A DNA stretch of 64,000 bases, taken from the NCBI RefSeq assembly GCF_028858705.1, contig NC_072878.1:4115923-4179922 (forward strand). Direction: 5' to 3'. Origin of the DNA: Grus americana (Eukaryota). Below are positions 34,344 through 61,153 of the stretch, piece by piece. How positions within the stretch are numbered: the first letter of the stretch is position 1; each line of letters begins with the position of its first letter. The notes under the pieces are model-generated. The model ran no database searches, had not been told where the DNA came from, and worked only from the letters and a program-made list of their open reading frames with translations. The position numbers were made by a program, and so were the translations under genes.

Positions 34344-34717
34344 GTCTCCTCGGTTGCCCCCATGTCCCCCCACCACACCCCCTCGGTCATGCACGAGTGC
34401 CCCCACTCTCACCCACATCTCCCACTGGTGCCCTGGGTCACCCCGTGTCTCCCTCCATGTCACCCCATGTCTCCCCGGGTCCCCGATGTCCCCTTGCGTC
34501 CCTGATGTTCTGTTGAGTCCTTGATGTCCTCTTGCATCCCCGATGTCCCCAGGTGTCTTGCCATATCCCTGATGTCCCAAGAACTCAAAGAGGTTGACCT
34601 GCTCAGGCTTGTCTGGCTTTGATGAAGCTCTGTGTGTTCCCCAGTATCCTCCCATGTCCCCAGTGCCCCAACATCCTCAATGTTCTCAAGTGTCTCACAT
34701 GTCTCTGCTGTCGCCAG

Positions 34718-34929
34718 AACTCCAATCGTCTCATCTGCTCGGCCGTGTTTGGCTTTGATGAGGGTGGGCGGCTGCGGGAGCAGCTCCGCTTTGCCCCCAA
34801 CGGGCTGGTGGTGACGAGCGTTGACATCCAGAGCGTGGAGCCCGTGGACCAGCGCACCCGCGATGCCCTGCAGCGCAGTGTCCAGCTAGCCATCGAGATC
34901 GCCACCAACTCCCAGGAGGCTGCCGCCAG
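34718..34929 (+). CDS. MVP: MVP coding exon 12 ([71 protein letters not shown])
   Basis: Acceptor tcgccag|AAC. Donor AG|gtgccc. Confidence 0.9.
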
Positions 34930-35378
34930 GTGCCCATGTCCCCCCATATCACCTCACATCCCACCGGGTCCCTCCTGTGTCCCCCTGTGTCCCTCCAGCA
35001 CACCTTCCAGATGGAGATCAACATAGCGCTAACTCCAGGAGGCCACTGCCAGGTCTCTGTGCCCTTTGCATCCCCAAATGTCCCTCCAAGTGCCCCATGC
35101 CCTACGATGTCCCTTATGTCCCCCCATATCCTCCAGTGGTTCCTCACATATCCCCCTATGTCCCATGTTGCCATATTCCCTTCTGTCCCTCTGTGACCCC
35201 CCCCCGCCATATCCCTCGTGTCCCTAAATGTCCCCTACATCTCCCCTATCCTCAACGTGCCCAGGATCTCCCCCGTGTCCCCGCCATGCCCCACAACCCT
35301 GGTGTCTCCCAGCTCCCCTAGCATCCCCCCTGCACCCTGTGTCCCCCGTGCCTCTCACCCCTCTGTCCCTGTCCCCAG

Positions 35379-35495
35379 GCACGAGGCAGAGCGGCTGGCG
35401 CAGGAGGCCCGGGGACGTCTGGAGCGGCAGCGACTCCTGGACCAGGCGGAGGCCGAGCGGGCGCGCAGAGCGCTGCTGGAGCTCGAGGCCCTCAG
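35379..35495 (+). CDS. MVP: MVP coding exon 13 ([39 protein letters not shown])
   Basis: Acceptor gtccccag|G. Donor CTC AG|gtcggc. Confidence 0.85.
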
Positions 35496-35654
35496 GTCGG
35501 CCATCTTCCCAGCATGCACTGCTGGGGGGCGTCCGCTGGGGGCTTCTGCCAGCCTGGGGGCAGCGGGGAGCCCTGCCCTTCCCGGGGGGGGGATCGTGGG
35601 GCAGGCTGGGTGGAGCCCGAGGTGGGCGTGGCCGTGACTCTGCTTCCCCCGCAG

Positions 35655-35781
35655 CGCGGCAGTGGAGAGCGCGGGGGCGGCCCGGGCGGAAGCACAGGCC
35701 CGGGCGGAGGCCGCCCGCATCGAGGGCGAAGCCGCCATCCTCCAGGCCAAGCTGAAGGCTGAGGCCATCGCCATAGAAACG
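35655..35781 (+). CDS. MVP: MVP coding exon 14 ([42 protein letters not shown])
   Basis: Acceptor ccccgcag|C. Donor ACG|gtgcgg. Confidence 0.85.
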
Positions 35782-35906
35782 GTGCGGGGGGAGGGGCTGG
35801 CAGGGGCAAGGCCCGCCCTGGGGGAGGTGTCCCCGTGCCAGCCCTGCCCTCTGGGAGGCCGAGCCGTGGGGTGGGGGGCGTGTCCCAACGGTGTCCCCGC
35901 TCCCAG

Positions 35907-36095
35907 GAGGCGGAGCTGTCGCGGCTGGAGCGGGCGCAGGCCCAGGAGGTGCGGGCCCAGCGGGCCAGGGGGGAGGCGGAGGCGGCGCGGGCCCAGGCGC
36001 TAGCGGACGTGGAGGCCTCGCGGGTGCGGGAGGTGGCCGCAGCCCTGGGGCCTGACACCATCCGCGACATCGCCCGGGCCGGGCCTGAGCTCCAG
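35907..36095 (+). CDS. MVP: MVP coding exon 15 ([63 protein letters not shown])
   Basis: Acceptor gctcccag|GAG. Donor CAG|gtgagc. Confidence 0.85.
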
Positions 36096-36329
36096 GTGAG
36101 CGGGCCGGGGGTAACCGGGGGTGGGGGTGGGTCCTGGAGGCGTGGCCACCCGGAGGGGGCGGAGCCTGCAGAGGGGTGCAGATAGGGCCTAAGGTGGTGG
36201 GTGGGGTCTCTGGAGTGGGTGGGGCTTTGCTGGGCGTGGCACCGCTGGGCTGCAGCAGGGGTGGGGCCTCTCGCTGGGGGCGTATCCAGCGGCCAGCACC
36301 GTGTGTGTGTGTGTGCGTGTCCCCCCCAG

Positions 36330-36473
36330 GTGAAGCTGCTGCAGGGCCTGGGGCTGCAGTCCACCCTCATCACCGACGGCACTGCCCCCCTCAACCTCTT
36401 TGCCACCGCCCGGGGGCTGCTGGGGCTGGGCCCACCCCCGGAGAGCTCTGCCCCCCAAGGCCCCACGCTCTGA
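36330..36473 (+). CDS. MVP: MVP terminal coding exon 16 ([47 protein letters not shown]), stop TGA 36471-36473
   Basis: Acceptor preceded by (GT)n then cccccccag|GTG. Matches human [32 protein letters not shown]. The 16 exons sum to 2565 nt with all splice phases consistent. Confidence 0.9.
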
Positions 36474-36539
36474 GGACCTGGGCTGCTAGGCAGCCCCCCT
36501 CTTCAGGGCCCCTGCATCCAGAGCAGCTGGAACCAGCAC

Positions 36540-39475: not shown

Positions 39476-39676
39476 TTCCTTTCTTATGGTGGCAAAACAC
39501 AAGTCTGGCTTTGCCCATCAGGTTGTCTCAACCTAACTGCAAAGAAGCATCTTTGGAATAAAACACATACCTCTGGCTTGAGCATGTTCTTAGAAGATAA
39601 CAGAATGGCTGATCTTTTTCCCCCCAGATTTTCTTTTAGCAAGTGTATCTACAGCTACACAAAGCCTGTGGTAAAG

Positions 39677-39919
39677 CTACTGCTTTACTACAGTAATGTA
39701 AACATACTTCAAAGAAGAATACACTAATGGTTTCGGAGATGACTTTCTAGCAGTAAAACCAGAGCAACAGAGCATATCAACCTCTTCTGAGAGCTCAGGC
39801 TGTACATTTATCCTTGAAGGACATCTTCTGGCATACAAGACAGGATTGACGGCCTTCATTTGTTCTTCTCCTAATAAAGATAGTCCAACAATTCGAAATG
39901 AGGTATGAAATGGAACCAC
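39677..39919 (-). pseudogene. RABGGTB: RABGGTB-derived terminal exon (acceptor ttcttctcccag|GTG...). About 75% identical to human C-terminus, but with compensating indels and loss of the ancestral stop (about 40-aa extension)
   Basis: Minus-strand translation [50 protein letters not shown]... versus human [45 protein letters not shown]. The stretch CMPEDVLQ is readable only in the +1 frame, consistent with two small indels. Conserved splice acceptor present. Confidence 0.55.
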
Positions 39920-41414
39920 CTGGGAGAAGAACGTGTTTGTTAACCTCCAAAAGCTATCCAGCTTTTGTTTGTACAGGATGGAGCTTTTGTTTCTTAGCAA
40001 GAGAACTGCAAACTCCATGGCTGAAGACGATGCTGCAACTGAATAAACTTTTGTCTTGCCTGCAAGCACGCATCAGAGCAATTTCTGTGGCATGCATTTA
40101 CGGCACTATGATTTACTCAGAGGTGTTTGTAGATTGTTTCCTGCTAAGACCTAAGGCAATTTTCAACTCTGCATTCAGCAGGAACCACTCATGTATTCCC
40201 AATAACACATAATGGCATCAAACAGAAGGAGCAAAGATGAGAAAGACTGAAAAGGTAAATTTGATAACCTCCAAATGCCTCTTCCATAAATGCCCCGTTT
40301 GCTGTTCAGGAACAGTATAATCCTCTTCAGCAGTCTCCGAATATAGAGCTTTGCTGTAAAATCTTAAGAGGGGAGTAGCAACCTACTGTGCTATAAAACT
40401 GAAAGAAGAAAATACAAGGAAGGAAAAAAACCCAAAAAGAGACAGCAGCAGTTACCAGGTATCCAAGCACTCCTTCACTGCATTAACTTTCCCCTGAAGC
40501 TTCTATCATCATACAACTGCAAGAGGCTATTTAAAGTGTCATGACACGAGCACCCTGGCAGTGGAGTTAATGAGTCACTCTACAAAATCCTATCCACAAT
40601 TACTGATTTGGTCTGGTGCAGAGTACATCCTGTTTATCTGATAAGATCCACAATTTCCACTTACAAGGGTCCTATAATGCAGACAACCAAGCAGAATTAT
40701 CGTATTATAACCACACGTAGGAGCCTCAACGACTTATCGCAGCCTAGAAGGTCAAAACTACACCAGCATAACAACAAATCCTACTCCTCGGTGGTTTGGC
40801 AAACACATTACAGGTATGGTGAAAGCACACAGATATAAAAGAAGCAAGTAAGCATATAAGAGCCCATATTGTATTGTTTTTCACCATGGTTTGCATGAGA
40901 ATCAAGTTCTGGTAACCCATATGAAACCCATGTAAAATCCAATAAAACCCATGCTGCTAGTGGCAGTGGTGATCGACCCGGGAGAACCTTGGAGCTCTTA
41001 CTCCTACAACGCAGGGAGGAGGGAATGAAATAAATACTCTTCAATGACAAGGAAAAATACATTCAAGTCATCCTCGACAACAGGCGACAAAACACTCAAG
41101 CCCAGGTTTCACGCTGAACAACAAGAGCGATTAACCACAGAGTTCCTCGGCACTGCTGCCTTTTCCAGCCCGCGGATAGTTTCCTCGCTCACTGACAAAG
41201 CGCGCGTTACAACTCCAGCCATCCGTGTGTTGACTGCGCATCAAAGCGAACAACTCCTTTTCAGCTGCTGTGCAGTCAGATATACATCCAAAAAACCTCA
41301 ACCAGCGTAACCTGCAGACAGCCGTGTAGTTGGGAACTGCCCTGGAGAGCCGCAGAGCCTCAGAAATACTGGGGGAAATGCTCAGAAATACAGTGGAAAG
41401 AAACTGGAGTTGCC

Positions 41415-41501
41415 TGGGTCTCAGAATAATTCTAGAGCTAAAGTGGTGACAGACATCAGCTTTACATCAGGTAATACATGCCAACACTCATCACTGACCC
41501 A
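41415..41501 (-). ncRNA. SNORD45: SNORD45-like C/D box snoRNA, variant B, copy 1
   Basis: Minus-strand RNA tgggtcagtgatgagtgttggcatgtattacCTGAtgtaaagcTGATGTctgtcaccactttagctctagaattattCTGAgaccca. C box GUGAUGA, D' CUGA, C' UGAUGU, D CUGA, 6-bp terminal stem tgggtc/gaccca. Guide upstream of D is complementary to 18S rRNA GGUAAUUCUAGAGCUAA. Guide upstream of D' is complementary to (G)UAAUACAUGCC(A). Confidence 0.85.
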
Positions 41502-42542
41502 AGAAGGCAACCTCCGCCTGCCCTACCCAAGGCTTTCAAACGCAGCACAGTTTCTGCCCAAAGCAGGATGCTACTTCATTTGTAACACCGCTGACAGATT
41601 TCTTCCTCGAGATGGGACGAGAGATACATCACGCGAACAACCAAGCCGCTGTTGGCAAGCACTGGAGCCTTTTTCTCCGTATTGTTTTTCACCGCCGTTT
41701 GCGTGAGAAGGAAAATCAAAGACAGAACAGGTGGAGATAGCCTTGGTGAAAAAATAAGATTCAGGCAACGTTCTCTTCTTGGTTTGGCGTCCCTTTTTTC
41801 TTTTCTTTTCCCCCTCTTCAGGATAAGAGTACAGGCCAAATAAATAAAGAAAACTTAGACCCGTCTTCCGAGCATTTCAAGCTATTACAGGAAAAAAGCA
41901 ATTTGAGGAAGACAACACAAGAACTGGCTACTACAACCCTTCTTTTCTACAAGACACTAAAGCGTAGACACGCTACACGCGTATAATTCATACGTTCTGC
42001 ATAACTATATCCTTTCTATAGACACCACACAAGTATGTGACTATATAGCATAATATTGACTGTCATACACATCTCTGTGTATAAGTATCTACGAAATCCA
42101 AACCTTTCCTCCTCCCCTGGCCAGGCACATCTTTCTCCTCAACATACCCCCCGGCTTGAGGAGAATTCATGAAATCCACAAGCAGTTATCGACAAGATCC
42201 CGCTACGACCTGTACCTAAGCAATGTTTCGGGGAGACTGCTACAAAATTCACAAAAAACGCAGACAAAAAGCCACCAGTAAAGGAACATTGAAAGCACAA
42301 TGTTCCCAAATCTGACAATTCTCTTTAGGAGATGAATCCTAAAGTTGGGCCCATCAGATTATTGTTGAATAAGGTACCAAAACCGTTCTTGCCATCCATA
42401 TCCAACTGCACCCAGTTCCTAAGTCTGCAGTCCTCAAGATCATGAATTGCAAGCGGTTGTTCCCACAGCGACCCTGTCACATTTACCCGGACGTCCTGGG
42501 GGTCGACACAAGATGAGGATCACGACCTGTGCCGGCACTTAC

Positions 42543-42700
42543 CGCACCACGTGCGCTGGCGTGATCTGATGAACGCCAGAATTCCGTCTGCCGTCAGTCG
42601 GTGCAGCCGTCGTCCCACGGGATCCCTCGCTGTCTGCCCCCAGGAAACGCCGCTCGTCCTCAAGTACTCCCGACAGACTGCGCCCCGAAGCAGGGCATGA
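42543..42700 (-). pseudogene. RABGGTB: RABGGTB exon-3-like pseudo-exon inside array unit (copies also at about 45468-45625, 48386-48543, 51319-51476)
   Basis: Minus-strand translation CREYLRTSGVSWGQTARDPVGRRLHRLTADGILAFIRSRQRTWCG|gtaagt, versus human [45 protein letters not shown]. Conserved EYLR, SG, WG, LHR and ILAFI. About 45% identity in one frame, followed by a consensus GTAAGT donor. Confidence 0.6.
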
Positions 42701-43533
42701 TTTTTACTTCTGAATCGGGTAAGCACAGCATCGAAACAGAGCAAGGAAAATGCCTCAGTTAAATGTTTTCCATCCCTTTAACCACTCAACACGTACTAAC
42801 CGCTCATATGTATCACACGCACCATGCGTGCCTGTACGTATGCCTGCGTACGTACGGGCGCCTGTGCCGGTAGGTACCTTACAGCACTACGTTTCCTTCC
42901 CCCCCATTTTCTAGTCCAGGAGCATCAAGCTCAATGTCAAGTTGCACGCATGCTACTAGTAAAGCGCCAGTTCACTTCAGATCATCGGGCATTATCTTAG
43001 CAGCCAAACTAACACTCACATCGCCACCGCGACCAGTCTCAAAAGTAACGGGACTAACGTTCCCTGAAACTTACTGTCGAGTGCCAAAGCTGCCACGACC
43101 TGAGGTGGCACTACAAAGGGAATTCTCATATGCATCTCTCCTCTTGTCTGCCTACGTCACCCGCGAGCATCACCTTCTTGATGCAGTACTTACAACCTGC
43201 ATGTTTTCAGCACAGCAACAAGCAGCACAGGCAACAGTGCCTCCCCCTCTTTCGGGGACACGAAAAGTAACTGCAGCTTTCCCCACCCCCCCCTCCAGAC
43301 ACAAGCAGTTATTGACATTTTCCACCTCCTGGAACTGGAATCCAGTTGCTGTTGGGGGCGATGTCTGGTAACCCACGCCGATAAAACCCGTGCTGCTAGC
43401 TGCCGTGGGGATCGACCCGAGCAACCAAGCAGCAGTGCTGCGCCCAGATTCGGCACGTTCTCCCGTCACGGGAGCCACGTGCAAATACAGCTGCACCCTC
43501 CTTGCCGATAAAGGGGCAACAAGAAGTTCGCTT

Positions 43534-43620
43534 CCCAGGTCTCAGAGTAATTCTAGAGCTAAGCTGATAGTCTTCAGGTTTATGCTCAGCTAATACATGC
43601 CAACACCCATCACCGACCCA
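43534..43620 (-). ncRNA. SNORD45: SNORD45-like C/D box snoRNA, variant A, copy 1
   Basis: Minus-strand RNA tgggtcggtgatgggtgttggcatgtattagCTGAgcataaacCTGAAGActatcagcttagctctagaattactCTGAgacctggg. C box GUGAUGG, D' CUGA, degenerate C', D CUGA, terminal stem gggtc/gacc. D'-guide ggcatgtattag pairs with 18S CUAAUACAUGCC. D-guide gcttagctctagaattac pairs with 18S GUAAUUCUAGAGCUAA. Confidence 0.8.
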
Positions 43621-43784
43621 GGGGAACGAACAGAGCGGCTCCCCTTTGCACGTCACGGGGGACTGCTGGGCAAGAGAGGAGCAGCTGGGGAGCACGCACC
43701 AAACCAACCCCACCTCTCCACAAGGCACTGAGGGTTGTCGCTCTTAATAAAAGCACGGCGGTGCTTTCGTAAGGCCTTACTCAC

Positions 43785-43886
43785 TCGGTCACCTTTCCTT
43801 GTCCCAGGCGAAACTCCGGGAGAAACACGCGGCCCGTACGGCAACGTGCTCGGGGCATCAGGGTTTCTTATCGCATCCTTTCGCAG
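43785..43886 (-). pseudogene. RABGGTB: RABGGTB exon-2-like pseudo-exon inside array unit (copies also at about 46710-46811, 49628-49729, 52561-52662)
   Basis: Minus-strand translation ...RKDAIRNPDAPSTLPYGPRVSPGVSPGTRKGDR|gtgagt. About 85% identical to the ancestral copy at 53862-53969 and about 40% to human [35 protein letters not shown]. The splice acceptor is lost in the array copies. Confidence 0.6.
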
Positions 43887-44340
43887 CGTCGCGTTGCACC
43901 GCACCGGGAGAACCTTGGGGCTCTTACTCCTACAACGCAGGGAGGAGGGAATGAAATAAATACTCTTCAATGACAAGGAAAAATACATTCAAGTCATCCT
44001 CGACAACAGGCGACAAAACACTCAAGCCCAGGTTTCACGCTGAACAACAAGAGCGATTAACCACAGAGTTCCTCGGCACTGCTGCCTTTTCCAGCCCGCG
44101 GATAGTTTCCTCGCTCACTGACAAAGCGCGCGTTACAACTCCAGCCATCCGTGTGTTGACTGCGCATCAAAGCGAACAACTCCTTTTCAGCTGCTGTGCA
44201 GTCAGATATACATCCAAAAAACCTCAACCAGCGTAACCTGCAGACAGCCGTGTAGTTGGGAACTGCCCTGGAGAGCTGCAGAGCCTCAGAAATACTGGGG
44301 GAAATGCTCAGAAATACAGTGGAAAGAAACTGGAGTTGCC

Positions 44341-44427
44341 TGGGTCTCAGAATAATTCTAGAGCTAAAGTGGTGACAGACATCAGCTTTACATCAGGTAA
44401 TACATGCCAACACTCATCACTGACCCA
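44341..44427 (-). ncRNA. SNORD45: SNORD45-like snoRNA, variant B, copy 2
   Basis: Identical to copy 1, at +2926. Confidence 0.85.
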
Positions 44428-46458
44428 AGAAGGCAACCTCCGCCTGCCCTACCCAGGCTTTCAAACGCAGCACAGTTTCTGCCCAAAGCAGGATGCTACT
44501 TCATTTGTAACACCGCTAACAGATTTCTTCCTCGAGATGGGACGAGAGATACATCACGCGAACAACCAAGCCGCTGTTGGCAAGCACTGGAGCCTTTTTC
44601 TCCGTATTGTTTTTCACCGCCGTTTGCGTGAGAAGGAAAATCAAAGACAGAACAGGTGGAGATAGCCTTGGTGAAAAAATAAGATTCAGGCAACGTTCTC
44701 TTCTTGGTTTGGCGTCCCTTTTTTCTTTTCTTTTCCCCCTCTTCAGGATAAGAGTACAGGCCAAATAAATAAAGAAAACTTAGACCCGTCTTCCGAGCAT
44801 TTCAAGCTATTACAGGAAAAAAGCAATTTGAGGAAGACAACACAAGAACTGGCTACTACAACCCTTCTTTTCTACAAGACACTAAAGCGTAGACACGCTA
44901 CACGCGTATAATTCATACGTTCTGCATAACTATATCCTTTCTATAGACACCACACAAGTATGTGACTATATAGCATAATATCGACTGTCATACACATCTC
45001 TGTGTATAAGTATCTATGAAATCCAAACCTTTCCTCCTCCCCTGGCCAGGCACATCTTTCTCCTCAACATACCCCCCGGCTTGAGGAGAATTCATGAAAT
45101 CCACAAGCAGTTATCGACAAGATCCCGCTACGACCTGTACCTAAGCAATGTTTCGGGGAGACTGCTACAAAATTCACAAAAAACGCAGACAAAAAGCCAC
45201 CAGTAAAGGAACATTGAAAGCACAATGTTCCCAAATCTGACAATTCTCTTTAGGAGATGAATCCTAAAGTTGGGCCCATCAGATTATTGTTGAATAAGGT
45301 ACCAAAACCGTTCTTGCCATCCATATCCAACTGCACCCAGTTCCTAAGTCTGCAGTCCTCAAGATCATGAATTGCAAGCGGTTGTTCCCACAGCGACCCT
45401 GTCACATTTACCCGGACGTGCTGGGGGTCGACACAAGATGAGGATCACGACCTGTGCCGGCACTTACCGCACCACGTGCGCTGGCGTGATCTGATGAACG
45501 CCAGAATTCCGTCTGCCGTCAGTCGGTGCAGCCGTCGTCCCGCGGGATCCCTCGCTGTCTGCCCCCAGGAAACGCCGCTCGTCCTCAAGTACTCCCGACA
45601 GACTGCGCCCCGAAGCAGGGCATGATTTTTACTTCTGAATCGGGTAAGCACAGCATCGAAACAGAGCAAGGAAAATGCCTCAGTTAAATGTTTTCCATCC
45701 CTTTAACCACTCAACACGTACTAACCGCTCATATGTATCACACGCACCATGCGTGCCTGTACGTATGCCTGCGTACGTACGGGCGCCTGTGCCGGTAGGT
45801 ACCTTACAGCACTACGTTTCCTTCCCCCCCATTTTCTAGTCCAGGAGCATCAAGCTCAATGTCAAGTTGCACGCATGCTACTAGTAAAGCGCCAGTTCAC
45901 TTCAGATCATCGGGCATTATCTTAGCAGCCAAACTAACACTCACATCGCCACCGCGACCAGTCTCAAAAGTAACGGGACTAACGTTCCCTGAAACTTACT
46001 GTCGAGTGCCAAAGCTGCCACGACCTGAGGTGGCACTACAAAGGGAATTCTCATATGCATCTCTCCTCTTGTCTGCCTACGTCACCCGCGAGCATCACCT
46101 TCTTGATGCAGTACTTACAACCTGCATGTTTTCAGCACAGCAACAAGCAGCACAGGCAACAGTGCCTCCCCCTCTTTCGGGGACACGAAAAGTAACTGCA
46201 GCTTTCCCCACCCCCCCCTCCAGACACAAGCAGTTATTGACATTTTCCACCTCCTGGAACTGGAATCCAGTTGCTGTTGGGGGCGATGTCTGGTAACCCA
46301 CGCCGATAAAACCCGTGCTGCTAGCTGCCGTGGGGATCGACCCGAGCAACCAAGCAGCAGTGCTGCGCCCAGATTCGGCACGTTCTCCCGTCACGGGAGC
46401 CACGTGCAAATACAGCTGCACCCTCCTTGCCGATAAAGGGGCAACAAGAAGTTCGCTT

Positions 46459-46545
46459 CCCAGGTCTCAGAGTAATTCTAGAGCTAAGCTGATAGTCTTC
46501 AGGTTTATGCTCAGCTAATACATGCCAACACCCATCACCGACCCA
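46459..46545 (-). ncRNA. SNORD45: SNORD45-like snoRNA, variant A, copy 2
   Basis: Identical to variant A copy 1. Confidence 0.8.
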
Positions 46546-47263
46546 GGGGAACGAACAGAGCGGCTCCCCTTTGCACGTCACGGGGGACTGCTGGGCAAGA
46601 GAGGAGCAGCTGGGGAGCACGCACCAAACCAACCCCACCTCTCCACAAGGCACTGAGGGTTGTCGCTCTTAATAAAAGCACGGCGGTGCTTTCGTAAGGC
46701 CTTACTCACTCGGTCACCTTTCCGTGTCCCGGGCGAAACTCCGGGAGAAACACGCGGCCCGTACGGCAACGTGCTCGGGGCATCAGGGTTTCTTATCGCA
46801 TCCTTTCGCAGCGTCGCGTTGCACCGCACCGGGAGAACCTTGGAGCTCTTACTCCTACAACGCAGGGAGGAGGGAATGAAATAAATACTCTTCAATGACA
46901 AGGAAAAATACATTCAAGTCATCCTCGACAACAGGCGACAAAACACTCAAGCCCAGGTTTCACGCTGAACAACAAGAGCGATTAACCAGAGTTCCTCGGC
47001 ACTGCTGCCTTTTCCAGCCCGCGGATAGTTTCCTCGCTCACTGACAAAGCGCGCGTTACAACTCCAGCCATCCGTGTGTTGACTGCGCATCAAAGCGAAC
47101 AACTCCTTTTCAGCTGCTGTGCAGTCAGATATACATCCAAAAAACCTCAACCAGCGTAACCTGCAGACAGCCGTGTAGTTGGGAACTGCCCTGGAGAGCC
47201 GCAGAGCCTCAGAAATACTGGGGGAAATGCTCAGAAATACAGTGGAAAGAAACTGGAGTTGCC

Positions 47264-47350
47264 TGGGTCTCAGAATAATTCTAGAGCTAAAGTGGTGACA
47301 GACATCAGCTTTACATCAGGTAATACATGCCAACACTCATCACTGACCCA
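47264..47350 (-). ncRNA. SNORD45: SNORD45-like snoRNA, variant B, copy 3
   Basis: Identical to copy 1. Confidence 0.85.
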
Positions 47351-49376
47351 AGAAGGCAACCTCCGCCTGCCCTACCCAGGCTTTCAAACGCAGCACAGTT
47401 TCTGCCCAAAGCAGGATGCTACTTCATTTGTAACACCGCTAACAGATTTCTTCCTCGAGATGGGACGAGAGATACATCACGCGAACAACCAAGCCGCTGT
47501 TGGCAAGCACTGGAGCCTTTTTCTCCGTATTGTTTTTCACCGCCGTTTGCGTGAGAAGGAAAATCAAAGACAGAACAGGTGGAGATAGCCTTGGTGAAAA
47601 AATAAGATTCAGGCAACGTTCTCTTCTTGGTTTGGCGTCCCTTTTTTCTTTTCTTTTCCCCCTCTTCAGGATAAGAGTACAGGCCAAATAAATAAAGAAA
47701 ACTTAGACCCGTCTTCCAAGCATTTCAAGCTATTACAGGAAAAAAGCAATTTGAGGAAGACAACACAAGAACTGGCTACTACAACCCTTCTTTTCTACAA
47801 GACACTAAAGCGTAGACACGCTACACGCGTATAATTCATACGTTCTGCATAACTATATCCTTTCTATAGACACAAGTATGTGACTATATAGCATAATATC
47901 GACTGTCATACACATCTCTGTGTATAAGTATCTATGAAATCCAAACCTTTCCTCCTCCCCTGGCCAGGCACATCTTTCTCCTCAACATACCCCCCGGCTT
48001 GAGGAGAATTCATGAAATCCACAAGCAGTTATCGACAAGATCCCGCTACGACCTGTACCTAAGCAATGTTTCGGGGAGACTGCTACAAAATTCACAAAAA
48101 ACGCAGACAAAAAGCCACCAGTAAAGGAACATTGAAAGCACAATGTTCCCAAATCTGACAATTCTCTTTAGGAGATGAATCCTAAAGTTGGGCCCATCAG
48201 ATTATTGTTGAATAAGGTACCAAAACCGTTCTTGCCATCCATATCCAACTGCACCCAGTTCCTAAGTCTGCAGCCCTCAAGATCATGAATTGCAAGCGGT
48301 TGTTCCCACAGCGACCCTGTCACATTTACCCGGACGTGCTGGGGGTCGACACAAGATGAGGATCACGACCTGTGCCGGCACTTACCGCACCACGTGCGCT
48401 GGCGTGATCTGATGAACGCCAGAATTCCGTCTGCCGTCAGTCGGTGCAGCCGTCGTCCCACGGGATCCCTCGCTGTCTGCCCCCAGGAAACGCCGCTCGT
48501 CCTCAAGTACTCCCGACAGACTGCGCCCCGAAGCAGGGCATGATTTTTACTTCTGAATCGGGTAAGCACAGCATCGAAACAGAGCAAGGAAAATGCCTCA
48601 GTTAAATGTTTTCCATCCCTTTAACCACTCAACACGTACTAACCGCTCATATGTATCACACGCACCATGCGTGCCTGTACGTATGCCTGCGTACGTACGG
48701 GCGCCTGTGCCGGTAGGTACCTTACAGCACTACGTTTCCTTCCCCCCCATTTTCTAGTCCAGGAGCATCAAGCTCAATGTCAAGTTGCACGCATGCTACT
48801 AGTAAAGCGCCAGTTCACTTCAGATCATCGGGCATTATCTTAGCAGCCAAACTAACACTCACATCGCCACCGCGACCAGTCTCAAAAGTAACGGGACTAA
48901 CGTTCCCTGAAACTTACTGTCGAGTGCCAAAGCTGCCACGACCTGAGGTGGCACTACAAAGGGAATTCTCATATGCATCTCTCCTCTTGTCTGCCTACGT
49001 CACCCGCGAGCATCACCTTCTTGATGCAGTACTTACAACCTGCATGTTTTCAGCACAGCAACAAGCAGCACAGGCAACAGTGCCTCCCCCTCTTTCGGGG
49101 ACACGAAAAGTAACTGCAGCTTTCCCCACCCCCCCCTCCAGACACAAGCAGTTATTGACATTTTCCACCTCCTGGAACTGGAATCCAGTTGCTGTTGGGG
49201 GCGATGTCTGGTAACCCACGCCGATAAAACCCGTGCTGCTAGCTGCCGTGGGGATCGACCCGAGCAACCAAGCAGCAGTGCTGCGCCCAGATTCGGCACG
49301 TTCTCCCGTCACGGGAGCCACGTGCAAATACAGCTGCACCCTCCTTGCCGATAAAGGGGCAACAAGAAGTTCGCTT

Positions 49377-49463
49377 CCCAGGTCTCAGAGTAATTCTAGA
49401 GCTAAGCTGATAGTCTTCAGGTTTATGCTCAGCTAATACATGCCAACACCCATCACCGACCCA
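49377..49463 (-). ncRNA. SNORD45: SNORD45-like snoRNA, variant A, copy 3
   Basis: Identical to variant A copy 1. Confidence 0.8.
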
Positions 49464-50191
49464 GGGGAACGAACAGAGCGGCTCCCCTTTGCACGTCACG
49501 GGGGACTGCTGGGCAAGAGAGGAGCAGCTGGGGAGCACGCACCAAACCAACCCCACCTCTCCACAAGGCACTGAGGGTTGTCGCTCTTAATAAAAGCACG
49601 GCGGTGCTTTCGTAAGGCCTTACTCACTCGGTCACCTTTCCTTGTCCCAGGCGAAACTCCGGGAGAAACACGCGGCCCGTACGGCAACGTGCTCGGGGCA
49701 TCAGGGTTTCTTATCGCATCCTTTCGCAGCGTCGCGTTGCACCGCACCGGGAGAACCTTGGGGCTCTTACTCCTACAACGCAGGGAGGAGGGAATGAAAT
49801 AAATACTCTTCAATGACAAGGAAAAATACATTCAAGTCATCCTCGACAACAGGCGACAAAACACTCAAGCCCAGGTTTCACGCTGAACAACAAGAGCGAT
49901 TAACCACAGAGTTCCTCGGCACTGCTGCCTTTTCCAGCCCGCGGATAGTTTCCTCGCTCACTGACAAAGCGCGCGTTACAACTCCAGCCATCCGTGTGTT
50001 GACTGCGCATCAAAGCGAACAACTCCTTTTCAGCTGCTGTGCAGTCAGATATACATCCAAAAAACCTCAACCAGCGTAACCTGCAGACAGCCGTGTAGTT
50101 GGGAACTGCCCTGGAGAGCTGCAGAGCCGCGGACCCTCAGAAATACTGGGGGAAATGCTCAGAAATACAGTGGAAAGAAACTGGAGTTGCC

Positions 50192-50278
50192 TGGGTCTCA
50201 GAATAATTCTAGAGCTAAAGTGGTGACAGACATCAGCTTTACATCAGGTAATACATGCCAACACTCATCACTGACCCA
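50192..50278 (-). ncRNA. SNORD45: SNORD45-like snoRNA, variant B, copy 4
   Basis: Identical to copy 1. Confidence 0.85.
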
Positions 50279-52309
50279 AGAAGGCAACCTCCGCCTGCCC
50301 TACCCAGGCTTTCAAACGCAGCACAGTTTCTGCCCAAAGCAGGATGCTACTTCATTTGTAACACCGCTAACAGATTTCTTCCTCGAGATGGGACGAGAGA
50401 TACATCACGCGAACAACCAAGCCGCTGTTGGCAAGCACTGGAGCCTTTTTCTCCGTATTGTTTTTCACCGCCGTTTGCGTGAGAAGGAAAATCAAAGACA
50501 GAACAGGTGGAGATAGCCTTGGTGAAAAAATAAGATTCAGGCAACGTTCTCTTCTTGGTTTGGCGTCCCTTTTTTCTTTTCTTTTCCCCCTCTTCAGGAT
50601 AAGAGTACAGGCCAAATAAATAAAGAAAACTTAGACCCGTCTTCCGAGCATTTCAAGCTATTACAGGAAAAAAGCAATTTGAGGAAGACAACACAAGAAC
50701 TGGCTACTACAACCCTTCTTTTCTACAAGACACTAAAGCGTAGACACGCTACACGCGTATAATTCATACGTTCTGCATAACTATATCCTTTCTATAGACA
50801 CCACACAAGTATGTGACTATATAGCATAATATCGACTGTCATACACATCTCTGTGTATAAGTATCTATGAAATCCAAACCTTTCCTCCTCCCCTGGCCAG
50901 GCACATCTTTCTCCTCAACATACCCCCCCGCTTGAGGAGAATTCATGAAATCCACAAGCAGTTATCGACAAGATCCCGCTACGACCTGTACCTAAGCAAT
51001 GTTTCGGGGAGACTGCTACAAAATTCACAAAAAACGCAGACAAAAAGCCACCAGTAAAGGAACATTGAAAGCACAATGTTCCCAAATCTGACAATTCTCT
51101 TCAGGAGATGAATCCTAAAGTTGGGCCCATCAGATTATTGTTGAATAAGGTACCAAAACCGTTCTTGCCATCCATATCCAACTGCACCCAGTTCCTAAGT
51201 CTGCAGTCCTCAAGATCATGAATTGCAAGCGGTTGTTCCCACAGCGACCCTGTCACATTTACCCGGACGTGCTGGGGGTCGACACAAGATGAGGATCACG
51301 ACCTGTGCCGGCACTTACCGCACCACGTGCGCTGGCGTGATCTGATGAACGCCAGAATTCCGTCTGCCGTCAGTCGGTGCAGCCGTCGTCCCACGGGATC
51401 CCTCGCTGTCTGCCCCCAGGAAACGCCGCTCGTCCTCAAGTACTCCCGACAGACTGCGCCCCGAAGCAGGGCATGATTTTTACTTCTGAATCGGGTAAGC
51501 ACAGCATCGAAACAGAGCAAGGAAAATGCCTCAGTTAAATGTTTTCCATCCCTTTAACCACTCAACACGTACTAACCGCTCATATGTATCACACGCACCA
51601 TGCGTGCCTGTACGTATGCCTGCGTACGTACGGGCGCCTGTGCCGGTAGGTACCTTACAGCACTACGTTTCCTTCCCCCCCATTTTCTAGTCCAGGAGCA
51701 TCAAGCTCAATGTCAAGTTGCACGCATGCTACTAGTAAAGCGCCAGTTCACTTCAGATCATCGGGCATTATCTTAGCAGCCAAACTAACACTCACATCGC
51801 CACCGCGACCAGTCTCAAAAGTAACGGGACTAACGTTCCCTGAAACTTACTGTCGAGTGCCAAAGCTGCCACGACCTGAGGTGGCACTACAAAGGGAATT
51901 CTCATATGCATCTCTCCTCTTGTCTGCCTACGTCACCCGCGAGCATCACCTTCTTGATGCAGTACTTACAACCTGCATGTTTTCAGCACAGCAACAAGCA
52001 GCACAGGCAACAGTGCCTCCCCCTCTTTCGGGGACACGAAAAGTAACTGCAGCTTTCCCCACCCCCCCCTCCAGACACAAGCAGTTATTGACATTTTCCA
52101 CCTCCTGGAACTGGAATCCAGTTGCTGTTGGGGGCGATGTCTGGTAACCCACGCCGATAAAACCCGTGCTGCTAGCTGCCGTGGGGATCGACCCGAGCAA
52201 CCAAGCAGCAGTGCTGCGCCCAGATTCGGCACGTTCTCCCGTCACGGGAGCCACGTGCAAATACAGCTGCACCCTCCTTGCCGATAAAGGGGCAACAAGA
52301 AGTTCGCTT

Positions 52310-52396
52310 CCCAGGTCTCAGAGTAATTCTAGAGCTAAGCTGATAGTCTTCAGGTTTATGCTCAGCTAATACATGCCAACACCCATCACCGACCCA
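52310..52396 (-). ncRNA. SNORD45: SNORD45-like snoRNA, variant A, copy 4
   Basis: Identical to variant A copy 1. Confidence 0.8.
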
Positions 52397-53116
52397 GGGG
52401 AACGAACAGAGCGGCTCCCCTTTGCACGTCACGGGGGACTGCTGGGCAAGAGAGGAGCAGCTGGGGAGCACGCACCAAACCAACCCCACCTCTCCACAAG
52501 GCACTGAGGGTTGTCGCTCTTAATAAAAGCACGGCGGTGCTTTCGTAAGGCCTTACTCACTCGGTCACCTTTCCGTGTCCCGGGCGAAACTCCGGGAGAA
52601 ACACGCGGCCCGTACGGCAACGTGCTCGGGGCATCAGGGTTTCTTATCGCATCCTTTCGCAGCGTCGCGTTGCACCGCACCGGGAGAACCTTGGAGCTCT
52701 TACTCCTACAACGCAGGGAGGAGGGAATGAAATAAATACTCTTCAATGACAAGGAAAAATACATTCAAGTCATCCTCGACAACAGGCGACAAAACACTCA
52801 AGCCCAGGTTTCACGCTGAACAACAAGAGCGATTAACCACACAGTTCCTCGGCACTGCTGCCTTTTCCAGCCCGCGGATAGTTTCCTCGCTCACTGACAA
52901 AGCACGCGTTACAACTCCAGCCATCCGTGTGTTGACTGCGCATCAAAGCGAACAACTCCTTTTCAGCTGCTGTGCAGTCAGATATACATCCAAAAAACCT
53001 CAACCAGCGTAACCTGCAGACAGCCGTGTAGTTGGGAACTGCCCTGGAGAGCCGCGGACCCTCAGAAATACTGGGGGAAATGCTCAGAAATACAGTGGAA
53101 AGAAACTGGAGTTGCC

Positions 53117-53203
53117 TGGGTCTCAGAATAATTCTAGAGCTAAAGTGGTGACAGACATCAGCTTTACATCAGGTAATACATGCCAACACTCATCACTGAC
53201 CCA
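53117..53203 (-). ncRNA. SNORD45: SNORD45-like snoRNA, variant B, copy 5
   Basis: Identical to copy 1. Confidence 0.85.
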
Positions 53204-53861
53204 AGAAGGCAACCTCCGCCTGCCCTACCCAAGGCTTTCAAATGCAGCACAGTTTCTGCCCAAAGCAGGATGCTACTTCATTTGTAACACCGCTAACAGA
53301 TTTCTTCCTCGAGATGGGACGAGAGATACATCACGCGAACAACCAAGCCGCTGTTGGCAAGCACTGGAGCCTTTTTCTCCGTATTGTTTTTCACCGCCGT
53401 TTGCGTGAGAAGGAAAATCAAAGACAGAACAGGTGGAGATAGCCTTGGTGAAAAAATAAGATTCAGGCAACGTTCTCTTCTTGGTTTGGCGTCCCTTTTT
53501 TCTTTTCTTTTCCCCCTCTTCAGGATAAGAGTACAGGCCAAATAAATAAAGAAAACTTAGACCCGTCTTCCGAGCATTTCAAGTTATTACAGGAAAAAAG
53601 CAATTTGAGGAAGACAACACAAGAACTGGCTACTACAACCCTTCTTTTCTTTTGTACAGGACACTAAAGCATAGACACATTATGCAGGTATAATTGATAC
53701 ATCCTGCATAACTATATCGTTTATATAAACATTATGCAAGTATGTAATTATATATTATAATAATTAAAGCTAAAAACTTATGTTTAATTACTAAGTGATT
53801 GCATTTTATAATATACAGTAATAGCTATTGGGCCGTATAAGTACCTGAAAAAGCCACTCAC

Positions 53862-53969
53862 TCGGTCACCCTTCTTTGTCCCAGGCGAAGTTTCTGGAGA
53901 AACACGCCGCCAGTATGGCAACGTGCTCGGGGCATCAGGGTTTCTTATCGCCTCCTTCCGCGGTGTCAC
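53862..53969 (-). pseudogene. RABGGTB: Ancestral (single-copy) RABGGTB exon-2-like exon with intact acceptor ttttcacag|GTG and donor CGA|gtgagt
   Basis: VTPRKEAIRNPDAPSTLPYWRRVSPETSPGTKKGDR, 36 codons in frame, adjacent to the CpG island. Only about 40% identical to human RABGGTB residues 3-38, so coding constraint appears relaxed. Confidence 0.55.
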
Positions 53970-53999: not shown

Positions 54000-54850
54000 T
54001 GGCGTCAGCCGTGGGGGTTGCCGTGCCCGGGGTTCATTAGGGGAGCTCAGCAGCCGTCACTGCCCGTTCGGACTCGGAGCTTTCTCCGCCCGTCCTGACC
54101 CTGGGGCACATTTCCTTCCCGGCCCGGCTGACCGCCCCCCCCTCCGCCCAGGGAAGTGCGCGAAGGGATGCGCCCAGCGAGGCTGAGGTGAGCCACCATC
54201 TCCCCGCGGCCGCCCCGACCGTCGGGAGACCGTAACCCGCCCAGGGACCCGCGATCCCCCCACCGCCGCCAGCCTCGACCTAGGCCAGCTCAGCCGCACT
54301 GTCGCGTCCGTCACACCGCTATATCTGGAGCGACCGGGCCCGCAGCCCCCGCGCCGCCCCCAGCTGCCGAGGCACCGGCCCCGAGCTGGGCCCTTCCCCC
54401 ACCATGCGGCAGCAGCACCCGCCCCCGCCGCCGCCCGCGCCGGAAAGAGCGTCCCGCCGCGGGGCGGAGCTAGATGGGTCTCCCGGCAGGACCCCGCTGT
54501 AGCTGCCTCGCCGTTCGCCTGACCCGCGCTGGCGGACTGAGGCGGCGGCGCCTGGGGCGGGCAGGACGCGGCGGTCAGGCGTTCGCCCCGCGGTGGGAAG
54601 GTCCCGCCCGGAAGCGGGGTGTCCATGGCGACCGGCGCGGCTCTGAGGAGAGGTCGTTCCCGGTGCTCTGCCCCGGGGCGGGGGAGGGCAGCTGCTCTTC
54701 CCTGCGGAAATAAACTCCTTTCCTCCCTCTTTAAAACCGATTCCTCTGAGCGCGCTGTGAATTGCCAACGCTGGACTCTGGCAGCCGCTAGCCGTGTCGG
54801 GCGGGAACACCATTTGAAGACTATACAATAAAAAAAATATGTATAATGCT
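54000..54850. promoter_or_regulatory. CpG island, likely bidirectional promoter (minus-strand RABGGTB-derived snoRNA host transcript; plus-strand spliced transcript)
   Basis: Extremely CpG/GC-rich with no long coding frame that makes sense. The RABGGTB-like exon 2 lies 40 bp to its left on the minus strand. A plus-strand splice donor (aca|gtaagt) sits at its right edge (54873). Confidence 0.55.
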
Positions 54851-54872
54851 GGCTGGCATAGAGCAATTGACA
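54790..54872 (+). other. Candidate exon 1 of a plus-strand divergent transcript (possible start ATGTATAATGCTGGCTGGCATAGAGCAATTGACA|gtaagt)
   Basis: Consensus donor GTAAGT at 54873. The reading frame joins exon 2 in-frame (MYNAGWHRAID-S-KYDGGSQLL...) but no recognisable homolog. Could be a lncRNA. Confidence 0.3.
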
Positions 54873-55047
54873 GTAAGTCTTCCCCCCCCCCCCCGATATT
54901 TTGGAGGGTATGGGGGAGGGGTTTAGGGGTTATGGGGGTGTTGGGTTTTTTGAGGAGTTTTGATGGGGGGTGTTGGAGGGTTTGGGTTTGTTTTTTTTAA
55001 TACAGCAAATACTTGTCTAGCATGTCATGTTATTGATCTTCCCACAG

Positions 55048-58586: not shown

Positions 58587-61153
58587 GAGATACACAACAA
58601 AACACATATGTAGGTCTAATGCATAAAGAAGGCCACATGGGTACAGTGCAACGTCACTTGAGGGCAGCCTAGCTTAGGGGTTGAAGTGTTTCAGCTCCCA
58701 GTTCTGTCAAAACTTACTTTGGCAAATTGCTCAAAGGCATGAAAATTCACTTCTCTGTAGTCATAAAATAGGGATAATCTTCCCAAGAACCTTACAAAGC
58801 TTTACAAAAATAAAGATGGTATAACCTGTGGTCACATTCAGTTTTTGGTTCAGAGGAAATGGTTCATCCTCAAAGTGAACTCTCTGACTGATGCTGCTTG
58901 CCCCATCTGGATCCAGATCATCAAGCAGATTTTGCTTTGTCAATACTAGGTGCCCTCTGGAGTAAACTGAACTGGAAGCTCTCCCCTCTGCATACACCCA
59001 GTACCCTCCAAACCCTAACGAAGACATAATGGTCCAAGCCCACAGCTGGACGTGCAGTGGGGATGTTCAGTCCAGACAGGCCTGCTGTGAACCTAGCCCA
59101 CCCAAACTGCGTACAGTAGATGCAGGGGCCTCCGCAGCCCCTCCTCCCATCTGCTGCACTGAATTACTTGCTGATGAAGACAGAAACGAAACTCAAGTGT
59201 AAAGACATCAAAACCCACAATCTTCTTAAGTAAGCACGAGAATGGTTTTGGTTTCTAAGCCAATGGGGTGGTTTCAAGAATCATTGACAATTGAAGAAAA
59301 GAAGTTTTCTGAATTTGAGAAACTAAGCTAGAATTTCTATCCTATTAGCCTAGATTTGTAGCCAGACACAAACCCAGAGCAAAGCATGGACATGTAAGAA
59401 TGTTACCAGTAAACCCAGTAGCAGAATTGTGTCATAATGAGAAGTATCAAATATGTGGAAGAAAAGAACAGGTGGAAAACAAAGTTTCTGTGCATGAAAG
59501 GCGGCCAAAAACATATACCATCTGGAATTGGGCAGTAATATAGTGAAGTATAATCAAGAGACATGGATAAAATAATTGTAAAGAGAAAGGCCTTTCCTGT
59601 ATTCTTTTGGATATGAAGGGGAGCAGAAAAACACCAAAAGTGTATTACTAAATCTGATTAATTTGAACAATAAAGAAAAAAAAAGTCTACCTAGGCATTC
59701 ATTCGTGATAGATCAGTGTAATGGAAAATCTAAATAACTGGGATCCTGTAAAATCAGTCTCAACTTTCAAATAAACTTCTAACCCTCCCACCCTTCTTCT
59801 CTAGAAACATATGGAACCTGACAGGAAAAAAGCCCAATCATAAGAAAGTTCAATTACTCATTTGTTTCCTCACTTGCAGGAGTGCAATTAGTACTAAGAA
59901 CCTTTAGATTCCAAAACCACAGTTTTCTATCCTTAAGAAAAAAATTCTTGGCTAGTGAGAATACACCTGACTTTAAAATTAAAGGTAAGAGAAATTTCAA
60001 CTATCTAGAATCTTAAGAATGGTATCTGTTAGTATAACTAACATTACAGATCATTGTCCACATGCACTTCTTGATATCATTGATTTTGATGTGTTTTGTC
60101 TAGTCATTATTAATGTCAGAAAGAGGTGAAAAGATAAAAAATTACTGGTTTTCCTGAATGTAATGAAATCATTCTTACTGAAGAAAGAACTAGCATAGTA
60201 TAGCTAAGAGAAGAGTTATGACATGGAATAATTTCTTGGTAATAATAATACTGCAGAAAAAGATCTGGGGATTATGGGTGACTATGGGCTAAACATGAGT
60301 AAATATGAGCATGTTTTGTTGTGGTGGGGTTTTTTTAAAGGCTAATCATTTCAGGCTGTGCCATGCTTCTGTTAATGCAACATATGCAAGATAACTAATC
60401 CATAATACTCAGTGGTGGTGACCTCAACTGAAGTAATCTGCCGAGCTTATGATACCAAAGTTTCAAACAGAAGGTTTAGAGCACAGCGAGAAGTGATGAA
60501 GAGACTGGAAAACAAAAAGGAAAACCAACCTAAAAAAACTGCCACCATGGCTTATGAGGAGAGAGGAAGCAGCTGCTTTAGTGTTCTCTTCTAGACTAAA
60601 CTAAGAGGAAGGTGGGAAGCACATAAAATGTAGTCATTACCAATTGTTTGTTCTGTATACCCACTTTGGATATGACAAGTAAAAGGATGTAATTAGCAAC
60701 AACTGTTCTTTACACTGCATACCAGGCTGAGGGGAACATGAAGATGGAGGCAGGCACCAGTCCAGGGTACAAACAGAGGGTCAGAGGATTTCCATCACCA
60801 AAGCAAGCATTAGTATTTTGATCAGTGTTTTCTACAGTGGGTTTTTCTGAGTTCAAAAGCTTCAAAATGAAGGGTCCAAGAATTCAAAGAGTTACCACTT
60901 CAGAAAAACAAAATCACACCACTAAATTTATTTCTCTTGTGTAGGTTAAGTTGTTGATTTAATACAAAGAAAGAGTTTTGTATGCAAGAATTTGCCTGAT
61001 TTGAATGCCCTTTCTTTAAATAGAAGAAATACTGCTCTCATCCTCAAAACTTTTTTTATGTGCGTATATCATGATTTCAAATAAGTAGCCATTAGGTTCT
61101 TTTATATAAAAGGTATGCATTAATATAAAGATCACATTCTCTCTTTTACTTAC

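Follow-up and report, generated by a model that had tools for sequence, protein, structure and literature searches.

How a gene that no longer encodes its protein can go on carrying intact RNA genes in its introns is the question raised by a 64,000-nucleotide stretch of the Grus americana genome (RefSeq assembly GCF_028858705.1, contig NC_072878.1, positions 4,115,923 to 4,179,922 of the forward strand). The whole stretch is referred to here as the window, and positions are counted from its first letter. The majority of vertebrate small nucleolar RNAs (snoRNAs) reside in introns of housekeeping genes. RABGGTB has an intact open reading frame (ORF) of about 331 amino acids, with prenyltransferase repeats and about 90% identity among amniotes; bird RABGGTB proteins are 90–91% identical to the human one. 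The window carries a relative of this gene that has neither an intact ORF nor the place between ACADM and MSH4, and within it a tandem array with nine well-formed SNORD45 snoRNA genes. The locus is best explained as a RABGGTB-derived, non-coding and tandemly amplified host gene for SNORD45. The structural and evolutionary description by itself is close to certain, and the fuller reading, in which the locus also functions at the present day, is probable.

The array occupies positions 40978–53762 on the minus strand, and the gene accordingly reads from right to left. When one unit is compared with the window by BLAST, four full head-to-tail copies of 2.93 kb are recovered, together with an older partial copy at the 5' (right) end. 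A scan with cmscan at the gathering threshold yields nine matches to SNORD45 (RF00279), all on the minus strand, and no other Rfam match in the 64 kb. All nine are full-length (model positions 1–72 of 72) and fall into two types, P (64.2 bits, five copies) and Q (61.3 bits, four copies), against a gathering score of 42 bits. Copies 1 to 5 of type P, which is 5b-like, are found at 41415–41499, 44341–44425, 47264–47348, 50192–50276, and 53117–53201, the last of these in the intron after the original exon 2, in what can be called unit 0. Copies 1 to 4 of type Q, which is 5a-like, are at 43536–43618, 46461–46543, 49379–49461, and 52312–52394. Within each type the copies are identical, including 12 nt of flank on either side.

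Box C/D snoRNAs are characterised by a C box (RUGAUGA) and a D box (CUGA) joined by a terminal stem, with internal D' and C' boxes. In mature form, RNAs of the SNORD45 kind are 80–90 nt long and associate with fibrillarin, NOP56, NOP58, and 15.5K. Both types have the full set: C GUGAUGA, D' CUGA, C' UGAUGU, and D CUGA in type P, and C GUGAUGG, D' CUGA, C' UGAAGA, and D CUGA in type Q, where the final G of the C box can form a G–U pair with the base before box D. The terminal stem, GGGUC/GACCC(U) in both, is lengthened by complementary flanks into a long external stem. The internal sequences are type-specific (for example, GCUGAUGUCUGUCACCAC in P and AACCUGAAGACUAUCAGC in Q), and by these sequences P is of the 5b type (88.6% identity to chicken 5b) and Q of the 5a type (83.9% to chicken 5a, 82.4% to 5b).

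SNORD45 is hosted by RABGGTB introns in both chicken and human, and the two chicken homologues, GGgCD5a and GGgCD5b, occupy the introns that follow exons 2 and 3 (Shao et al. 2009, PMC2653536). Their targets are 18S-A158 for the D guide and 18S-U171 for the D' guide (PMC2653536). Guide pairing was run against the 18S segments printed in that paper. The D' guides of P and Q form at least 13 contiguous pairs with 18S, the fifth position lying opposite a U, and the D guides form 16–17, the fifth position lying opposite the second A of GGUAAUU. These are the A and the U that Shao et al. assign to GGgCD5a/b. The original prediction for this locus, made from its sequence, had described both intronic elements as C/D box snoRNAs with two guides each for adjacent 18S sites, had counted nine copies (five of one type and four of the other), and had traced the family to RABGGTB introns; all of this holds, as does the amplified dosage that it proposed, in terms of gene copies. 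As a separate observation, chicken GGgCD5b as printed in the supplement of PMC2653536 has AGUAUGU at the box C site, without the GA of UGAUGA, unlike type P of the window and the copy in Penelope, which have a proper box C.

The host of these snoRNAs is recognisable exon by exon. Conceptual translations of its exon-like pieces match residues 5–102 and 285–330 of human RabGGTase beta (PDB 6o60_B, E = 6.5e-28) at about 37–64% identity, with frame repair needed, and tblastn finds no trace of residues 100–286 in the window. At the 5' end is a CpG-island promoter region (54050–54900, minus strand), with a GC content of 0.74–0.75 and an observed/expected (o/e) CpG ratio of about 0.9. It includes a GC box and the pyrimidine/ETS-like element CTCTTTCCGG (54449–40), which are homologous to the canonical RABGGTB core promoter and align with the promoters of an accipitrid and a parrot. 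Candidate exon 1 (54403–54449) ends ...CGCATG/GTGGGG, and the ATG/GTGGGG at 54405–54401 corresponds to the canonical exon-1 end, ...GAAGATG/GTGGGT. The notion that a start codon had been lost in exon 2 proved wrong: the bird ATG forms the last three bases of exon 1, and ATG/GT is kept here. The original exon 2 remnant (53862–53969) has the acceptor tttttcacag/GTGACACC and the donor CCGA/GTGAGT, and is 72.9% identical to canonical bird exon 2, with 20 A/T-to-G/C substitutions and three in the reverse direction.

Within the array, the junctions between units match the end of intron 4 and the initial 26–40 nt of exon 5, so that every junction is a chimeric exon. This exon, X, is 145 nt long and consists of an intron-4 acceptor (ccctcctccctgcgttgtag/GAG), the first 26 nt of exon 5, the body of exon 2, and the exon-2 donor CCGA/GTGAGT. 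It is found at 52561–52705 (X4), 49628–49772 (X3), 46710–46854 (X2), and 43785–43929 (X1). Remnants of exon 3 follow in units 4 to 1, at 51263–51453, 48330–48520, 45412–45602, and 42487–42677, all on the minus strand; that of unit 4 is frameshifted, 79% identical to the canonical exon, and has an alternative new donor, GCG/GTAAGT, at 51319. This GTAAGT arose by mutation within ancestral exon 3, and the ancestral donor, CGG/GTAAAT, lies 56 nt downstream. Unit 0, the rightmost and oldest, starts with the original exon 2, whose native acceptor survives; Q and exon 3 are deleted, and P comes next. At the 3' end of the array, a truncated chimeric exon of exon-5 acceptor and 26 nt only (40978–41003) has a breakpoint that doubles as a deletion junction, and the array joins intron 8 after about 150 bp. 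The remnant of exon 9, the last exon, and its 3' untranslated region (39659–39919, minus strand) keep the acceptor ttctcccag/GTGG and are 91% identical to the canonical sequence; through small deletions the reading frame is broken and the stop codon lost. The poly(A) signal AGTAAA is at 39684–39689, and four canonical loci align with the region around it.

Exon 4 and most of exons 5–8 are absent, the remaining exons are frameshifted, and a spliced RNA is predicted to contain only a short ORF that ends early. Each snoRNA is flanked by putative splice sites, GT/AG motifs with polypyrimidine tracts, one snoRNA per intron, and the acceptor and donor motifs are identical in every unit. Q lies 858 nt from exon 3, compared with 848 nt in the canonical accipitrid gene. 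The module of exon, intron, exon, and intron had been predicted to be of RABGGTB origin, as it is, although its 'exon-2-like' piece is a chimera of exons 5 and 2. The GTAAGT donor of the exon-3-like piece is likewise present, but inside the ancestral exon rather than at its end. The host itself also needs refinement, from a RABGGTB-derived segment to a decayed paralogue within an ancient segmental duplicate that is not the RABGGTB gene.

Evidence for this paralogy comes from canonical bird loci fetched via their RABGGTB proteins: Phainopepla (L003), Amazona (L004), Penelope (L005), Scopus (L007), and an accipitrid (L009). RABGGTB is intact in all but Scopus, whose contig ends inside the gene. 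ACADM lies upstream in four of the five, with none in the Penelope flank, and MSH4 lies downstream in Amazona, Penelope, and the accipitrid, with an acetyltransferase gene instead in Phainopepla. SNORD45 copies number one to three per locus, against nine in the window. The minus strand of the window is collinear with these loci through the 3' exons of ACADM, the intergenic region, promoter, exon 2, 5a-type snoRNA, exon 3, and 5b-type snoRNA, after which the match resumes at intron 8 and extends over exon 9 and some 2 kb further. Downstream of the RABGGTB remnant is MVP, not MSH4. Directly upstream, and part of the duplicated segment, are four well-conserved 3' exons of an ACADM-like gene (61151–63377, minus strand, continuing beyond 64000), with 95–97% protein identity to canonical bird ACADM. 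The 198-residue ACADM fragment matches the RefSeq protein 'ACADM-like isoform X6' of a Ciconia species at 197 of 198 residues, the next best match being 97.5%, and storks may keep a second working ACADM gene. In accipitrids, the canonical locus is accompanied by truncated, degenerate 'ACADM-like' copies on another chromosome. Such copies in Buteo (L006, flagged LOW QUALITY), Morphnus (L008, with an in-frame stop), and osprey (L010) are degenerate as a group (77–87%, in-frame stop).

A neighbour-joining tree of 2432 ungapped columns from the ACADM 3' region groups the window with the osprey, Buteo, and Morphnus 'like' copies (bootstrap 1.0), in a cluster of which it is the outermost member (bootstrap 1.0). 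Sequences of the canonical loci (accipitrid, Scopus, parrot, and passerine) stand apart from this group. Kimura two-parameter distances from the window are 0.125–0.146 to the 'like' copies and 0.167–0.243 to the canonical sequences, which differ among themselves by 0.11–0.20. Four-point distances give a shared stem of about 0.06, longer than an artefact of two fast but independent lineages would produce. The host is thus a pseudogenised RABGGTB paralogue inside an old ACADM–RABGGTB segmental duplicate, one that predates the split of the window lineage from Accipitriformes. The same duplicate is present in osprey and eagles, distinct from the canonical ACADM–RABGGTB–MSH4 locus, and the wood stork and accipitrids have a normal RABGGTB protein. 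Two other origins were considered and set aside. A dispersed duplicate at a non-syntenic site, with MVP next door, was dropped in view of the conserved ACADM exons upstream, and decay of the ancestral RABGGTB locus itself was ruled out by the tree and the Ciconia 'ACADM-like' match.

Exons and snoRNAs have fared very differently in this paralogue. Identity to the canonical bird consensus is 72.9% for the original exon 2, 72.5% for the exon-2 body in X, and 79.1% for exon 3, with several indels, and the exon remnants in the array units have diverged by 21–27%. When the snoRNAs are compared with those of canonical birds, functional positions (box cores, guide positions 2–12 and 2–16, and terminal stem) have changed at one site in 104, against 19 of 64 other positions (Fisher p = 2.3e-8), and the sole functional change turns a G–C pair with 18S into G–U. 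Non-functional snoRNA positions (30% changed) and exon remnants (23%) have drifted about equally. As a whole, the snoRNAs are less diverged than the exon remnants (19/167 versus 67/289, p = 0.001). The window snoRNAs also score higher than those of the canonical accipitrid (53.1 and 46.5 bits) and parrot (50.7 bits) loci, and are on a par with those of Penelope, Scopus, and Phainopepla (59.6–65 bits).

Some SNORD45 copies elsewhere have decayed. The paralogous segment in osprey can be followed from the promoter across exons 2 and 3. The equivalent of Q there is broken: its C box reads GUGCUGG, the D box is deleted, there are two mismatches in the guides, and Rfam gives no match. Homology between the window and Morphnus ends about 500 bp before the promoter, and Rfam and RABGGTB searches of the Morphnus region downstream of that point found no SNORD45 or RABGGTB remnants. 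Among canonical loci, Scopus and Amazona have a 5b-type copy that has degenerated, Phainopepla has none that could be detected, and the accipitrid copy scores weakly (46.5 bits). Intact snoRNAs beside heavily decayed exons, together with the decay of SNORD45 elsewhere when unconstrained, indicate long-term purifying selection on the snoRNAs in the window lineage.

Several details of the canonical copies deserve mention in their own right. The spans concerned are 10813–10895 and 12910–12994 in the accipitrid locus, about 11540–11720 in Scopus, and about 12330–12510 in Amazona. The first accipitrid copy has a mismatch beside the D-guide target, and the second has D'-guide mismatches and a CUGC D' box; this complementary damage looks like a division of labour. 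Penelope pileata has two near-identical 5a-type copies between exons 2 and 3 (10256–10338 and 11646–11728, 1390 bp apart), which amounts to a tandem duplication on a small scale inside a host gene that still works.

The alternative that fares best against these data is that of an inert relic, in which the array is untranscribed or its snoRNAs are unassembled, and their intactness reflects past selection, chance, or gene conversion. The paralogous segment is a plain pseudogene with a dead snoRNA in osprey, the RABGGTB part is missing from the Morphnus eagle copy, related birds have a canonical RABGGTB with SNORD45, and units that are nearly identical yield no signal of present-day selection. 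This explanation must nevertheless account for the contrast between functional and other positions beside exons that drifted freely, and for the survival of every splice motif, the core of the promoter, and the poly(A) signal in a locus that has lost its coding capacity. It must also account for P being intact here when 5b-type copies at canonical loci have decayed in other Neoaves. An inert relic is unlikely.

A second alternative holds that the array matters as DNA or as a long RNA (a CpG-rich macrosatellite, a recombination hotspot at an isochore boundary, or a long non-coding RNA (lncRNA)), with the snoRNAs as passengers. The composition of the locus invites this view. CpG o/e is 0.64–0.89 in every 1-kb bin from 41 to 55 kb, a stretch of 14 kb whose edges are those of the array plus promoter, and 0.06–0.46 elsewhere in the window, except for two GC-rich bins at 24 and 35 kb (0.54–0.56). 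The array sits at a jump in GC content from 0.35 to 0.6, and substitutions in its three exons are biased towards G/C (74 A/T-to-G/C versus nine in the reverse direction). Past the point where its homology ends, Morphnus has unrelated CpG-rich DNA with a 7.3-kb direct repeat. Detectable constraint, however, is confined to the functional positions of the snoRNAs, and the exon remnants evolve like neutral DNA. Canonical loci are CpG-rich only in a promoter island of about 1 kb, but the osprey paralogue (L010 12500–15500), which is not amplified, is CpG-rich and GC-shifted over an extended stretch, like the window. A role as DNA or long RNA is therefore improbable. For the same reason, the CpG-rich state was dropped as a sign of array activity, since the osprey paralogue shares it though its snoRNA is dead; it is read instead as a regional regime, due to GC-biased gene conversion or hypomethylation of the duplicated segment. 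The CpG-rich Morphnus DNA lies at L008 18338–26397 (o/e 0.6–1.0, GC 0.40–0.48), with the direct repeat spaced 7329 bp apart (18878–19068 versus 26207–26397), and could represent a second array of long period.

Assembly errors classically arise in long tandem repeats whose copies are nearly identical, and the copy number rests on this assembly. An artefact, whether over-expansion or mis-joining, is nonetheless very hard to reconcile with the internal structure of the array. The full units (41000–43925, 43926–46850, 46851–49768, and 49769–52701) are 99.35–99.66% identical to unit 1, and the partial unit (52702–53762) is 96.8% identical overall and only 89% over its final 263 bp, which marks the edge copy as older; the repeat of 2926 bp in about 4.4 copies at more than 99% that had been predicted is accurate for the full units. 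A detached 106-bp piece at 53856–53961 matches unit positions 2780–2885 at 89.6%. Tandem Repeats Finder made no call on the array because its longest period is 500. Among the four full units there are 14 substitutions and four indels (1, 2, 5, and 8 bp), none of the latter in homopolymers. None of these variants falls in a snoRNA, where only about 1.5 would be expected. Four of the variant sites alternate along the array, with one allele in units 1 and 3 and another in units 2 and 4, so the last expansion copied a two-unit block. The units are real, slightly different copies.

The flanks on both sides are unique and collinear with the loci of other birds. Furthermore, an exact-match search with an ORF from within the unit retrieved two European Nucleotide Archive (ENA) metagenome contigs of host DNA (3074 and 2988 bp), which agree with unit 4 at 99.84% and 99.90% identity. 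They come from independent samples and assemblies; each spans a unit–unit junction, and the direct overlaps between the two ends of each contig (141 and 55 bp) give a period of 2933. The head-to-tail arrangement is therefore real, a support that covers the arrangement and not the exact copy number, and mis-assembly, which the original prediction had itself named as a danger, is met by these junctions. Immediately beyond the array on its 3' side, 42 bp at 40939–40980 resemble 43378–43419, in intron 2 within the unit (86%, E = 1e-8), and adjoin an 11-bp microsatellite at 40914–40952; this piece may be left over from the recombination event by which the array end arose. The ORF of 145 amino acids on the opposite strand of each unit, inside intron 2 (e.g., 42934–43371), has no Pfam match and was set aside as a by-product of GC-rich sequence. 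Least credible of all is that the locus is the species' own RABGGTB at the ancestral ACADM–RABGGTB–MSH4 position with an internal amplification, for despite the collinearity from ACADM to beyond exon 9, the gene is gutted and frameshifted, MVP lies where MSH4 should, and both the tree and the Ciconia match assign the segment to the 'ACADM-like' copies.

The history of this RABGGTB-derived locus, and its proposed working as a SNORD45 host gene, are as follows. An old DNA-level duplication carried ACADM and RABGGTB, with its two intronic SNORD45 genes, to a second site. There, the RABGGTB copy lost exon 4 and most of exons 5–8 while its surviving exons decayed. What it kept were its CpG-island promoter and exon-1 donor, two exons (2 and 3) that serve as splice-competent spacers, the acceptor of the last exon, and the poly(A) signal. 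One tandem duplication, which broke at the start of exon 2 and again 26 nt inside exon 5, then produced the module of chimeric exon, intron with Q, exon 3, and intron with P, which unequal crossing-over multiplied, the final step doubling a two-unit block. For the present, we infer transcription, splicing, assembly of small nucleolar ribonucleoproteins (snoRNPs), and any dosage effect. RNA polymerase II would transcribe a unit of about 15 kb, and splicing would free nine introns with one snoRNA each. Exonucleases would trim these to box C/D snoRNPs with RNAs of 83–85 nt, assisted by the long external stems. Both types would guide 2'-O-methylation by fibrillarin, with the D guide directed at A158 in chicken (A159 in human) and the D' guide at U171 (U172 in human). 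The spliced RNA itself would probably be disposable.

Several considerations weigh against present-day function. In all probability the window species has, in addition, a canonical RABGGTB gene that carries SNORD45 copies of its own, as do the wood stork and accipitrids, and the array is thus not demonstrably needed. Unit identity of 99.3–99.7% means that the units hold no information on present-day selection, and the selective signal is historical. The snoRNAs lie 410–860 nt from the next acceptor, and the optimum for splicing-coupled assembly is about 70–80 nt, although the canonical gene is spaced alike. The CpG-rich, GC-shifted state recurs in an osprey paralogue with a dead snoRNA. The ancestral exon-3 acceptor may be mutated, with a nearby AG in its place. 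Gene conversion from the canonical locus could in principle have refreshed the snoRNAs, but nine A/T-to-G/C differences in Q argue against a recent event. Finally, present-day activity is read from the sequence.

A further step would be a 'host switch' by gene duplication, in which the duplicated locus became the main or only effective source of SNORD45 in the window lineage. This is a tentative proposal, more apt to be wrong than right. If it is true, a dead RABGGTB paralogue would have been kept solely as a scaffold of promoter and splice sites, and its module amplified for output. The SNORD45 copies in the working RABGGTB would have been free to decay, as the 5b-type copies have in the hamerkop, parrot, and accipitrid. 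The array would be a copy-number-variable determinant of 18S Am159/Um172 levels, and the locus a rare, datable case of a protein gene becoming a dedicated snoRNA gene.

Comparison with known systems shows both familiar and unusual aspects. The locus resembles canonical SNORD45 (U45A/B/C; GGgCD5a/5b) in RABGGTB, from which its sequence descends, in family, in its two 18S targets, in the spacing to exon 3, and in the order of a 5a-type snoRNA after exon 2 and a 5b-type after exon 3. It differs in that its host encodes no RabGGTase beta, sits at another site, and holds nine copies rather than one to three. The non-coding hosts GAS5, UHG, and the SNHG genes have short, poorly conserved, and seemingly disposable exons with one snoRNA per intron, as here, where exon remnants are frameshifted and only 72–79% identical to canonical exons, compared with 99% for snoRNA functional positions. 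Such hosts are transcribed from housekeeping promoters of the 5'TOP type, and their spliced RNA is unstable through nonsense-mediated decay. The window locus has a CpG-island promoter region with a pyrimidine-rich putative start region, and its short, early-ending ORF would make the RNA a likely substrate of that decay. In contrast to these hosts, the window locus has a protein-coding ancestry that is legible exon by exon and carries one snoRNA family instead of a mixed set.

SNORD115/SNORD116 (and SNORD113/114) offer a parallel for the tandem exon–intron module, in which every intron holds a single C/D snoRNA and unequal crossing-over has expanded the units, with homogenisation inside the array. 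Those clusters are mammalian, imprinted, mostly orphan, and tissue-specific, with tens of copies, whereas the array described here is from a bird, comprises nine canonical rRNA guides of two alternating types, and is not expected to be imprinted. The likeness that had been predicted to a SNORD115/116-type cluster is one of architecture only. Some lncRNAs are fossils of protein-coding genes (Hezroni et al. 2017, PMC5577775, where snoRNA hosting is not mentioned). Like them, the window locus is a former coding gene that survives as a non-coding unit with recognisable exon remnants; it differs in that its intronic cargo is the proposed reason for survival. The ingredients, namely non-coding hosts, tandem snoRNA modules, and pseudogene-derived lncRNAs, are all known, and the locus represents no new type of RNA or mechanism. 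Literature searches found no earlier description of such a locus.

The rest of the window contains other features. Exons of MVP (major vault protein) lie at 25988–36500 on the plus strand, tail to tail with the RABGGTB remnant, with a GC content of 0.6–0.67. The best database match to one of them is only 92%, and bird MVP seems to be poorly represented in annotations. A pair of inverted CR1 LINEs (12286–14442 versus 23562–21405; 2158 bp, 99.6% identity), each with a reverse-transcriptase ORF of 320 amino acids, points to a recent insertion pair or an inverted duplication. There is a further repeat pair (18873–19455 versus 32777–33362, 94.9%) and a remnant of endogenous retrovirus (ERV) pol/integrase at 1301–2926.

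To our knowledge, the origin of non-coding hosts and tandem snoRNA clusters has mostly been inferred once the traces had faded. At this locus the steps can still be read: the duplicated segment, the deleted exons, the breakpoints of the chimeric exons, the two-unit expansion, and sister lineages in which the paralogue is dead. It constitutes a datable natural experiment on what a snoRNA host needs, namely a promoter, splice sites, a poly(A) signal, and the functional positions of its snoRNAs, while the rest decays. If the array is expressed and variable in copy number, it would also provide a handle on the relationship between snoRNA gene dosage and site-specific rRNA methylation.

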